Part shown: positions 2,792 to 6,165 of the stretch, one piece after another | Layout of the letters: the number at the start of each line of letters is the position of its first letter | Position numbering within the stretch: position 1 is the stretch's first letter | Source: Escherichia coli | GTDB taxonomy: Bacteria; Pseudomonadota; Gammaproteobacteria; Enterobacterales; Enterobacteriaceae | Strand: one strand, 5' to 3' | Length of the DNA: 64,000 nt | Assembly (NCBI RefSeq): GCF_016903815.1 | Contig: NZ_CP069973.1 | Notes under the pieces: generated by a model | What the model saw: only the letters and a program-made list of their open reading frames with translations | Database searches by the model: none | Told to the model about the DNA's origin: nothing | Program-made: the position numbers and the translations under genes

Positions 2792-2893
2792 GACGCCTTA
2801 TCATAGCAGCCAGCCTCTTGATACCCAATCTCTTGCTTCTGGAAAAACGTGGTAATAGAGAAAGAGGTTAATTTCATTGGTAATGACTCCAAC

Positions 2894-3397
2894 TTATTGA
2901 TAGTGTTTTATGTTCAGATAATGCCCGATGACTTTGTCATGCAGCTCCACCGATTTTGAGAACGACAGCGACTTCCGTCCCAGCCGTGCCAGGTGCTGCC
3001 TCAGATTCAGGTTATGCCGCTCAATTCGCTGCGTATATCGCTTGCTGATTACGTGCAGCTTTCCCTTCAGGCGGGATTCATACAGCGGCCAGCCATCCGT
3101 CATCCATATCACCACGTCAAAGGGTGACAGCAGGCTCATAAGACGCCCCAGCGTCGCCATAGTGCGTTCACCGAATACGTGCGCAACAACCGTCTTCCGG
3201 AGCCTGTCATACGCGTAAAACAGCCAGCGCTGGCGCGATTTAGCCCCGACATAGCCCCACTGTCCGTCCATTTCCGCGCAGACGATGACGTCACTGCCCG
3301 GCTGTATGCGCGAGGTTACCGACTGCGGCCTGAGTTTTTTAAGTGACGTAAAATCGTGTTGAGGCCAACGCCCATAATGCGGGCTGTTGCCCGGCAT
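2894..3397 (-). CDS. insB: IS1 InsB (transposase C-terminal part, expressed as InsAB' by -1 frameshift)
   Basis: 167-aa [29 protein letters not shown]... matching IS1 InsB; A6C slippery motif TTAAAAAACTC on minus strand at 3331-3342. Confidence 0.9.
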
Positions 3398-3591
3398 CCA
3401 ACGCCATTCATGGCCATATCAATGATTTTCTGGTGCGTACCGGGTTGAGAAGCGGTGTAAGTGAACTGCAGTTGCCATGTTTTACGGCAGTGAGAGCAGA
3501 GATAGCGCTGATGTCCGGCGGTGCTTTTGCCGTTACGCACCACCCCGTCAGTAGCTGAACAGGAGGGACAGCTGATAGAAACAGAAGCCAC
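3316..3591 (-). CDS. insA: IS1 InsA (DNA-binding transposition inhibitor / transposase N-terminal part)
   Basis: 91-aa [45 protein letters not shown]... zinc-finger-like CxxC...CxxC, matches IS1 InsA. Confidence 0.9.
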
Positions 3592-3918
3592 TGGAGCACC
3601 TCAAAAACACCATCATACACTAAATCAGTAAGTTGGCAGCATCACCAAGAGCGCTATCCAGATAAAAACGATTAAATGCGAGAGTGCGACATGCCAGAAT
3701 GATTAATGAAATATCAATATGAGAAAATTACAGATAATTTCATTGTCAGGTTCTCTTCTCATTTTCGTGGTTTAACCACGATTATGTGATTGCCTCCGCA
3801 ATTCCTGTCTCTAACTCCCCTTCCTCGCAAAAACTGGCACTCCACGAGCATGTGTTTAGACAGTTTCATTAACGTAAACGGTTGCTTTTTACTCTGGCGG
3901 GCGAAAGGAGAAACACTG

Positions 3919-5367
3919 ATGAGCGCCATAGATTCCCAACTTCCCTCATCTTCTGGGCAAGACCGCCCAACTGATGAGGTTGACCGCATATTATCACCAG
4001 GAAAGCTGATCATACTCGGTCTGCAACACGTCCTTGTCATGTACGCAGGTGCAGTCGCTGTTCCTCTTATGATTGGTGACCGACTGGGCCTCTCAAAAGA
4101 AGCTATTGCGATGCTCATTAGCTCGGATCTCTTTTGCTGCGGGATCGTCACATTATTGCAATGTATCGGTATCGGCCGCTTTATGGGGATCCGCCTGCCG
4201 GTGATTATGTCGGTGACCTTTGCTGCTGTAACACCAATGATAGCCATTGGGATGAACCCGGATATCGGCCTGCTGGGGATATTTGGTGCCACTATCGCCG
4301 CGGGTTTTATCACCACATTATTAGCGCCACTTATCGGTCGCTTGATGCCTTTATTCCCGCCACTGGTTACCGGTGTGGTTATTACTTCTATCGGGCTTAG
4401 CATCATTCAGGTGGGCATTGACTGGGCCGCCGGAGGTAAAGGGAATCCGCAATATGGTAATCCCGTTTATTTAGGTATCTCCTTTGCCGTCTTAATTTTT
4501 ATCTTGCTCATTACTCGCTATGCGAAAGGATTTATGTCCAACGTCGCAGTATTACTGGGGATTGTATTTGGCTTTTTACTTTCGTGGATGATGAATGAAG
4601 TCAATTTATCCGGGCTACATGATGCTTCATGGTTTGCGATTGTTACGCCGATGTCGTTTGGTATGCCGATTTTCGATCCCGTTTCCATTCTGACCATGAC
4701 TGCCGTGTTAATCATCGTGTTTATCGAGTCGATGGGGATGTTCCTGGCACTGGGTGAAATAGTCGGTCGTAAACTCTCTTCGCACGATATTATTCGCGGG
4801 CTGCGTGTCGATGGCGTAGGGACAATGATAGGCGGCACGTTTAACAGCTTCCCCCACACGTCATTTTCACAAAACGTTGGCCTGGTTAGCGTGACGCGCG
4901 TTCATAGCCGCTGGGTGTGTATTTCTTCGGGAATTATATTAATCCTGTTTGGCATGGTGCCAAAAATGGCGGTGCTGGTAGCCTCCATTCCGCAATTTGT
5001 GCTGGGCGGCGCTGGTCTAGTGATGTTCGGCATGGTACTGGCGACAGGGATTCGAATTTTGTCGCGCTGTAACTACACCACCAACCGTTACAACCTCTAT
5101 ATTGTGGCGATCAGTCTCGGCGTTGGCATGACTCCGACGCTCTCTCACGATTTCTTTTCTAAGTTACCGGCCGTACTGCAACCGCTGCTACATAGCGGCA
5201 TTATGCTCGCAACCCTTAGCGCCGTTGTGCTGAACGTCTTCTTTAATGGCTATCAGCATCATGCTGACCTGGTGAAGGAATCCGTCTCTGATAAAGATTT
5301 AAAAGTCAGGACAGTACGTATGTGGCTTCTGATGCGCAAGCTGAAGAAAAATGAGCATGGAGAATAA
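3919..5367 (+). CDS. uacT: NCS2/NAT-family uric acid:H+ symporter UacT (YgfU); true start is the internal Met MSAIDSQLP, not the 525-aa ORF start
   Basis: 482-aa polytopic membrane protein with NAT signature region; matches recalled YgfU; extended ORF N-terminus is non-coding leader. Confidence 0.88.
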   Translation: MSAIDSQLPSSSGQDRPTDEVDRILSPGKLIILGLQHVLVMYAGAVAVPLMIGDRLGLSKEAIAMLISSDLFCCGIVTLLQCIGIGRFMGIRLPVIMSVTFAAVTPMIAIGMNPDIGLLGIFGATIAAGFITTLLAPLIGRLMPLFPPLVTGVVITSIGLSIIQVGIDWAAGGKGNPQYGNPVYLGISFAVLIFILLITRYAKGFMSNVAVLLGIVFGFLLSWMMNEVNLSGLHDASWFAIVTPMSFGMPIFDPVSILTMTAVLIIVFIESMGMFLALGEIVGRKLSSHDIIRGLRVDGVGTMIGGTFNSFPHTSFSQNVGLVSVTRVHSRWVCISSGIILILFGMVPKMAVLVASIPQFVLGGAGLVMFGMVLATGIRILSRCNYTTNRYNLYIVAISLGVGMTPTLSHDFFSKLPAVLQPLLHSGIMLATLSAVVLNVFFNGYQHHADLVKESVSDKDLKVRTVRMWLLMRKLKKNEHGE

Positions 5368-5368
5368 T

Positions 5369-5494
5369 ATGAATTTTTTAATGCGCGCTATATTCAGTCT
5401 GCTGTTGCTTTTTACTCTCTCTATTCCTGTCATTTCTGACTGTGTTGCAATGGCCATTGAAAGTCGCTTCAAATATATGATGCTACTTTTTTAA
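5369..5494 (+). CDS. yqfG: Small hydrophobic protein YqfG (41 aa: MNFLMRAIFSLLLLFTLSIPVISDCVAMAIESRFKYMMLLF)
   Basis: ATG 2 nt after uacT stop with GGAG 7 nt upstream; single predicted TM helix; corresponds to small K-12 ORF recalled between ygfU and idi; below ORF-track size cutoff. Confidence 0.5.
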   Translation: MNFLMRAIFSLLLLFTLSIPVISDCVAMAIESRFKYMMLLF

Positions 5495-5616
5495 ATGGTT
5501 TTTACCTGTCGGCATCCGCTCAAAACGGGCGGTTGTCGATAAACGCTCACTTGGTTAATCATTTCACTCTTCAATTATCTATAATGATGAGTGATCAGAA
5601 TTACATGTGAGAAATT

Positions 5617-6165
5617 ATGCAAACGGAACACGTCATTTTATTGAATGCACAGGGAGTTCCCACGGGTACGCTGGAAAAGTATGCCGCACACACGGCAGAC
5701 ACCCGCTTACATCTCGCGTTCTCCAGTTGGCTGTTTAATGCCAAAGGACAATTATTAGTTACCCGCCGCGCACTGAGCAAAAAAGCGTGGCCTGGCGTGT
5801 GGACTAACTCGGTTTGTGGGCACCCACAACTGGGAGAAAGCAACGAAGACGCGGTGATCCGCCGTTGCCGTTATGAGCTTGGCGTGGAAATTACGCCTCC
5901 TGAATCTATCTATCCTGACTTTCGCTATCGCGCCACCGATCCGAATGGCATTGTGGAAAATGAAGTGTGTCCGGTATTTGCCGCACGCACCACCAGTGCG
6001 TTACAGATCAACGATGATGAAGTGATGGATTATCAATGGTGTGATTTAGCAGATGTATTACACGGTATTGATGCCACACCGTGGGCGTTCAGTCCGTGGA
6101 TGGTGATGCAGGCAGCCAATAGTGAAGCAAGAAAATTGTTGTCTACTTTCGCGCAGCACAATTAA
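5617..6165 (+). CDS. idi: Isopentenyl-diphosphate delta-isomerase (type 1, Nudix fold)
   Basis: 182-aa [44 protein letters not shown]... matches E. coli Idi. Confidence 0.93.

Follow-up and report, generated by a model that had tools for sequence, protein, structure and literature searches.

The uacT gene (ygfU) encodes the urate/proton symporter, and immediately behind it, before idi, lies a reading frame of only 41 codons. The earlier note on this DNA, made from the letters alone, had called the frame yqfG, described its product as a hydrophobic peptide with a single membrane-spanning segment, and suggested that it may be co-transcribed with uacT and serve the permease as a small partner. 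Two questions arise, namely whether this frame encodes a protein at all, and, if it does, whether that protein has to do with UacT. We considered both in a stretch of 64,000 nucleotides of an E. coli genome, called the window below. Our best overall explanation is a known gene, yqfG, encoding an inner-membrane protein with a single helix, together with the mechanism proposed at the end, and we hold it to be very probable as a whole. Its parts differ in strength. The identity and the reality of the YqfG protein are practically certain, and the role of this protein at UacT is considered separately.

The gene turns out to be on record. RefSeq labels this exact coding sequence yqfG, 'protein YqfG' (WP_001010156.1), between uacT and idi in loci that are 100% identical. 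At least 80% of a 401-base query (window positions 5250–5650) is present in 5349 of 5426 complete E. coli genomes, and among the matches listed every one that covers the reading frame is annotated 'yqfG: protein YqfG' between uacT and idi. The name given in the earlier note is hence the correct one, RefSeq having the same coding sequence at the corresponding coordinates. The remark of the same note that the frame is not in the list of open reading frames is true of that list, where it is absent through the length cut-off, but the gene is publicly annotated. Thus the feature is an already known, annotated gene and not an unrecognised one. In E. coli K-12, YqfG (the same accession) is identical over its 41 residues, and its gene likewise lies between uacT and idi, with yqfH as antisense neighbour. 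The two are one and the same gene, and the difference from K-12 lies upstream, where an IS1 element stands in place of 31 kb from xdhA to ygfT. E. coli YqfG matches no Pfam or NCBIfam model, and its relatives give sub-threshold noise only. A sequence search of the PDB returned only hits with E > 0.1, and no related solved structure was found. In the searches of Pfam-A, NCBIfam, Rfam and the PDB, YqfG reaches no curated family threshold. The features of the locus are listed in Table 1.

Table 1. Features at and around yqfG, in coordinates of the window.
Feature	Position	Strand	Description and basis
IS1 element	2879..3646	-	replaces 31 kb (xdhA to ygfT); 272 bp of native sequence left upstream of uacT
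uacT (ygfU)	3919..5367	+	urate/proton symporter, 482 aa; stop TAA 5365–5367; ORF and annotation in identical loci
GGAG, Shine-Dalgarno-like for yqfG	5359..5362	+	within the last uacT codons, 6 nt before the ATG
yqfG	5369..5494	+	41-aa small inner-membrane protein; annotation, selection, predicted helix, literature
yqfH	5491..5562	-	annotated 23-aa ORF, antisense to the hairpin; 4-nt overlap with the yqfG stop
Hairpin 13 nt past the yqfG stop	5507..5541	+	stable fold; no U-tract in E. coli
idi sigma-70 promoter TTGTCG-18-AATCAT	5533..5562	+	reported in PMC3946193; hexamers located in the window sequence
idi, isopentenyl-diphosphate isomerase	5617..6165	+	downstream neighbour in Escherichia and Citrobacter only

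The junction of the two genes is tight. A single base, 5368, separates the uacT stop codon from the ATG of yqfG at 5369, and the yqfG stop TAA occupies 5492–5494. The frame translates exactly to MNFLMRAIFSLLLLFTLSIPVISDCVAMAIESRFKYMMLLF, 41 residues, hydrophobic. All this agrees with the earlier description, which had placed the ATG two nucleotides after the uacT stop (the last base of uacT being 5367), had seen GGAG upstream of it (six bases before, as it happens), and had quoted the same peptide. Two further in-frame ATGs, at 5351 and 5357, are situated inside the 3' end of uacT and would yield products of 47 or 45 residues, and the list of open reading frames has the former, 5351..5494 (47 aa). 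Both seem to arise incidentally from the uacT codons that specify N-E-H-G. The Kluyvera homologue, which begins at its own ATG preceded by a Shine-Dalgarno sequence, supports the 41-residue start as the likelier one compared with the longer forms. The six frames of the window contain 198 open reading frames of 41–60 residues, and therefore the size of yqfG by itself is unremarkable. It is conservation, not length, that sets this frame apart from chance.

Orthologous regions were compared from E. albertii, divergent E. coli, two cryptic Escherichia lineages, Citrobacter sp. R56, C. amalonaticus, C. enshiensis, a Citrobacter-like contig and one further taxon. Throughout the orthologous regions collected (Escherichia, Citrobacter and the further taxon) yqfG is exactly 41 codons long, with zero indels. 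Summed over nine pairs from 10 taxa, its frame has pN/pS of 0.32 and contains no stops, whereas the other five frames over the same segment have 2–43 stops and pN/pS from 0.50 to 5.15. The Nei-Gojobori omega of yqfG is 0.07–0.13 within Escherichia and 0.10–0.41 in divergent comparisons, and the single exception, close to 1, is a Citrobacter pair with only four differing sites. For two phylogenetically independent pairs, the differences at the first, second and third codon positions number 10, 2 and 24, respectively (chi-square p = 3e-5). The earlier note had named the loss of the frame, with no synonymous-site pattern in orthologous uacT-idi spacers, as the observation that would speak against the gene. 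Both the frame and the pattern are conserved. These comparisons indicate that the yqfG frame is under purifying selection, although the peptide evolves faster than its neighbours: between Escherichia and Citrobacter omega is about 0.3 for yqfG, versus about 0.02 for uacT. For idi it is about 0.07–0.11. Such fast evolution is usual for a helix that is constrained mainly in its hydrophobicity. An antisense frame of 57 codons (5299..5472, minus strand) was considered as a separate candidate and rejected, as it has stops in two of the 10 taxa and pN/pS of 0.50, compared with 0.32 for yqfG.

AlphaFold2, applied with 13 sequences, predicts one helix spanning residues 3–40, with mean pLDDT of 83.8, dropping towards the C-terminus. 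The best 19-residue Kyte-Doolittle window scores 2.18 in E. coli YqfG and 2.1–2.5 in five family members. Along with the published membrane integration and intramembrane cleavage, described below, these values bear out the peptide with a single transmembrane segment that had been suspected from the sequence.

Homology search with YqfG as a single sequence finds Escherichia and Shigella only. The wider family emerged solely through tblastn on the uacT loci and profile searches. The former yielded a 54%-identical ORF of 41 residues in Citrobacter sp. R56 and a 32%-identical ORF of 38 residues in Kluyvera, both just past uacT, and the latter, relatives of 38–42 residues in Escherichia, Citrobacter, Kluyvera, Klebsiella and Enterobacter. 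The names of the sequence clusters cover Citrobacter, Klebsiella michiganensis, oxytoca, pasteurii and aerogenes, the Enterobacter cloacae complex, and also Salmonella enterica subsp. diarizonae and Apirhabdus/Erwinia sp. HR93, whose membership is taken from these cluster names. Identity within the family ranges from 29 to 56% across several genera. The alignment of 30 sequences has a gap-free core in which Arg6, Pro20, Arg33 and Phe34 are invariant. The motif Ser32-Arg-Phe is near-invariant, Ser32 being replaced by Gly in three sequences (Klebsiella michiganensis-type, P0106). The family pattern may be written as [SA]-[IL]-P-x-[IV]-[SQ]-x-[GA]-[IL]-x-[LF]-[GA]-[IL]-x-S-R-F-x-[FYW]. The tetrapeptide ISDC of the E. 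coli sequence could be taken for a lipoprotein signal. This was rejected, as a lipobox would not have Asp at −1, and no cysteine stands there outside Escherichia.

The position of the gene was examined starting from the peptide sequences, so that the look-ups were unbiased towards uacT. In all 13 of them the peptide gene lies directly after, or overlaps, a gene of the Xan_ur_permease family. These permeases have 482–493 residues, and their genes stand beside homologues of ygfT/ygfS or of ssnA. The junction itself takes several forms. Escherichia and Citrobacter have the permease stop, one base, and the ATG of the peptide; Klebsiella and Enterobacter have a TAATG overlap, and a third genus (locus L104) a TGATG overlap; two metagenomic lineages have a gap of 3–4 nt, and Kluyvera a gap of 66 nt with its own AGGA. 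At every orthologous junction the last permease codons contain a Shine-Dalgarno-like purine run (GGTGA, AGGAT, GAGGA, AGGAA, GGAGGGG). What follows the peptide gene is variable: idi in Escherichia and Citrobacter, regulators of the AraC family (rhaSR-like) in one further taxon, a molybdopterin oxidoreductase 17–27 nt further on in Klebsiella, Enterobacter and locus L108, and opposite-strand genes similar to mocA or to yqeB/yqeC elsewhere. Since all 13 contexts adjoin or overlap the permease gene while the downstream gene varies, co-expression with UacT is supported. Co-transcription of uacT and yqfG is strongly suggested by this arrangement.

Applied to the six-frame translations of all loci, the family HMM matches only at positions following uacT. 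It finds no match behind the uacT homologues of C. freundii M-21, Serratia oryzae, Pluralibacter, Morganella, Hafnia, Edwardsiella, Aeromonas and the Burkholderiales. As several uacT homologues have no family member, the peptide is not essential for a transporter of this type. The peptide gene thus seems to travel with uacT, yet not every uacT has one.

Several of these loci deserve separate description. In K. michiganensis, the Enterobacter cloacae complex and one metagenomic lineage (L098–L103 and L108, at about 4001–4145) the family ORF is situated between uacT and the oxidoreductase gene, overlapping uacT or leaving a 4-nt gap. The oxidoreductase starts 17–27 nt later and begins with MK(R/K)VTTVCPYC. 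This arrangement suggests an ancestral unit of three genes, uacT, peptide and oxidoreductase, of which E. coli would have kept the first two only. The Serratia oryzae locus (L004, about 4441–4545) has a 34-residue ORF (MIRFWFAAALLHRYKECDSHERC...) that overlaps with the stop of uacT (ATGA) and is followed by the same oxidoreductase gene. Its beginning resembles a family member, its continuation is not hydrophobic, and the family HMM does not match it; it may be what a decayed family member has left. Finally, in Escherichia sp. E2593 (L092, GCA_004745145.1, 2551..3999) uacT is out of frame for about 70 first codons, has three premature stops and is not called as a gene, and yqfG is intact. Seen in one genome, this uacT could be a true pseudogene, or else the assembly is wrong here.

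The region between yqfG and idi contains a hairpin with a folding energy of −23.5 kcal/mol (z = −3.4); none of 200 shuffled sequences folds as well. Hairpins of 13–17 bp are predicted at the same place in E. albertii, cryptic Escherichia, three Citrobacter groups, C. amalonaticus and one further taxon. Their stems differ in sequence between the lineages, and they are situated 12–15 nt past the yqfG stop (loci L002, L080, L093, L094, L017, L085, L090, L082, L087, L005 and L089). Only in Kluyvera is the hairpin followed by a T-run, as in an intrinsic terminator. Klebsiella and Enterobacter, where the next gene begins within about 20 nt, have no such hairpin, and one is predicted in L104, where the next gene is on the opposite strand. 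A scan for consensus terminators found nothing after uacT or yqfG. The hairpin is probably the 3' end, or a stabiliser, of the uacT-yqfG transcript. Since it follows yqfG and not uacT, and since a constitutive sigma-70 promoter of idi is listed between yqfG and idi (PMC3946193), uacT and yqfG would form one transcript ending after yqfG. The layout argues for such a single transcript, and we infer it from there. An RNA element instead of a gene was considered and rejected: in the Rfam scan of 5200–5700 the only match, to the model of an Enterococcus sRNA, scored 21 bits, with a threshold of 100 bits.

The yqfH frame on the other strand of the hairpin is not maintained. It has 30 codons in E. 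albertii and 61 in divergent E. coli, and cryptic Escherichia has a different call of 17 residues. Hence the conservation of yqfH may merely reflect that of the hairpin. The gene was reported on the basis of chromosomal epitope tagging (PMC6001520).

The window adds one more circumstance. The IS1 element is 768 bp long (junctions 2878/2879 and 3646/3647) and joins the actS side directly to the 272 bp of native sequence before uacT. It stands in place of 31,092 bp, which in a K-12-like genome carry xdhA through ygfT, a cluster implicated in purine catabolism, namely the anaerobic, formate-dependent degradation of urate. This junction is common to only 38 of the 5426 complete E. coli genomes. 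In this lineage uacT and yqfG are both intact, orphaned from the deleted pathway.

The protein has been studied mostly as a substrate of the intramembrane protease RseP. An SPA-tagged form of YqfG was reportedly detected by Hemm in 2008. The Akiyama laboratory described YqfG as a small membrane protein, its function not known and its predicted orientation N-in/C-out (PMC4597795); that paper credits Hemm et al. 2008 with the discovery of these small proteins and the evidence of their expression. The choice of YqfG there rested on its likeness to signal peptides, an established class of RseP substrates (PMC4597795). [quoted passage not shown] A later screen counted YqfG among the class I substrates of RseP, with cleavage in each of the four assays, among them those with chromosomally encoded RseP and with purified RseP acting on a peptide synthesised in a cell-free system (PMC10470546). 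The data on RseP and on the membrane, in vivo and in vitro, come from tagged constructs (HA-MBP-, 3xFLAG-, HA-Met6-) expressed from plasmids, and the physiological meaning of the cleavage was left open by its authors (PMC4597795). The searchable literature yielded no experiment linking YqfG to UacT, nor a change in the transporter upon loss of yqfG. Published studies have overexpressed ygfU by itself in E. coli, with probiotic strains meant for the lowering of uric acid, and also in yeast. These are uninformative on YqfG, because the E. coli hosts keep the chromosomal yqfG and expression in yeast failed for other reasons.

Given these data, the readings of the locus may be compared. That the frame arose by chance in the uacT-idi spacer and has no product that matters is suggested by the abundance of ORFs of this size in the window and the lack of a Pfam or NCBIfam match. 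However, frame, length and motif are conserved across genera at the identity levels given above, the other five frames are interrupted by stops, the third-position bias is significant, and the literature treats YqfG as an expressed small membrane protein (PMC4597795). The comparative data exclude the chance frame, to which we give next to no credence. Another reading takes YqfG for a mini-precursor: residues 1–23 would be a Sec signal peptide, signal peptidase I would release a periplasmic peptide of about 18 residues, DCVAMAIESRFKYMMLLF, and RseP would clear the leftover. In outline the E. coli sequence has a basic n-region (R6) and a hydrophobic core, with V-x-S just ahead of Asp24 and Pro at −4; the motif conserved best, S-R-F, falls in the would-be mature part, and the RseP authors selected the protein for this very likeness. 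However, the hydrophobic stretch runs past the putative site up to residue 30. Sites of signal peptidase need small residues at −3 and −1, and the corresponding family columns hold Gln, Arg, Asp, Glu, Thr or Tyr in many members (PAVQQA, PVVQQG, PAVRQA). Furthermore, tagged YqfG is integral to the membrane (PMC4597795), and purified RseP cuts the full-length tagged protein without signal peptidase (PMC10470546). Processing by signal peptidase is thus quite improbable.

More serious is the reading in which YqfG is a real membrane peptide that is not tied to UacT. It could belong to some other membrane component, of the anaerobic metabolism of urate and formate or elsewhere, or the act of its translation could be what matters, by protecting the 3' end of the uacT mRNA or by regulating the flow of ribosomes into the next gene. 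In every case the locus is part of a urate-catabolic cluster, with ygfT/ygfS or ssnA upstream and, in Klebsiella and Enterobacter, the molybdopterin oxidoreductase close behind, so that a tie to the pathway and a tie to the permease are inseparable. Many uacT homologues lack the peptide, which also favours a role elsewhere. On the other hand, a purely cis-acting function of translation does not explain conservation at the level of the peptide, with four invariant residues (R6, P20, R33 and F34) and pN/pS of 0.32. At that, the stop-start adjacency or overlap is specifically with uacT in all 13 contexts, allowing for the 66-nt gap in Kluyvera, and in the lineage of the window the two genes persist together, intact, though xdhA through ygfT are deleted. 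We regard a function apart from UacT as unlikely, while giving it far more weight than the signal peptide.

A role of YqfG linked to UacT, for which synteny is the evidence, is the reading that we prefer, if at somewhat less than even chances. It is weakened by the existence of uacT homologues without the peptide and by the fast evolution of the latter. The mechanism that we propose is as follows. The yqfG gene would be transcribed with uacT, and the ribosomes finishing uacT would re-initiate on yqfG, that is, the two genes would be translationally coupled; such coupling would mean that the peptide is made alongside the permease. YqfG would insert with its N-terminus in the cytoplasm, the hydrophobic residues 7–30 being bracketed by Arg6 on one side and by the periplasmic Ser-Arg-Phe plus an aromatic residue on the other. 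It would then be a small subunit, accessory or regulatory, that acts on or with UacT or in the urate pathway. Free or excess YqfG would be removed by RseP, the conserved, helix-breaking Ser18 and Pro20 aiding the cleavage. Extended to the Enterobacterales, this gives a more specific and still more tentative hypothesis: proteins of the YqfG family may be dedicated subunits or regulators of UacT, synthesised in a coupled manner, setting the stability or activity of the permease by binding to it, with RseP clearing the unassembled excess.

Small proteins with one helix that modulate transporters or membrane complexes are known from several pairs, AcrZ-AcrB, KdpF-KdpABC, CydX-CydAB and MgtS-MgtA. 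Like them, YqfG has at most 50 residues (41), one hydrophobic helix, according to AlphaFold2 and hydropathy, and little sequence outside the membrane. The kdpF and cydX genes are encoded in the operon of the large partner, and yqfG likewise stands beside uacT. The likeness comes from size, helix and gene position: YqfG has no sequence similarity to AcrZ, KdpF, CydX or MgtS, and its putative partner is a secondary permease of the NCS2/NAT family. To our knowledge, no such small subunit is known for these permeases. With other RseP substrates (remnant signal peptides, YkgR, HokB, HokE, Blr and YshB) YqfG shares the type II orientation, a very short periplasmic tail and helix-destabilising residues. 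The differences are that remnant signal peptides are by-products of secretion, whereas YqfG is a primary gene product, and that, unlike for the Hok toxins, neither toxicity nor a function has been reported for YqfG.

The gene itself was known, and what is added here is the definition of the family and its strict linkage to the urate permease gene in several genera. The linkage holds across different downstream genes and, in the strain studied here, after the loss of the rest of the urate-degradation cluster, which makes a role at UacT a hypothesis that can be tested cheaply. If YqfG indeed tunes UacT, this could be of consequence for work on probiotic E. coli in which ygfU is overexpressed by itself against uric acid. 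It would be the first small-protein partner described for a nucleobase transporter of the NCS2/NAT family, and a secondary nucleobase transporter would join the short list of those controlled by tiny membrane proteins.
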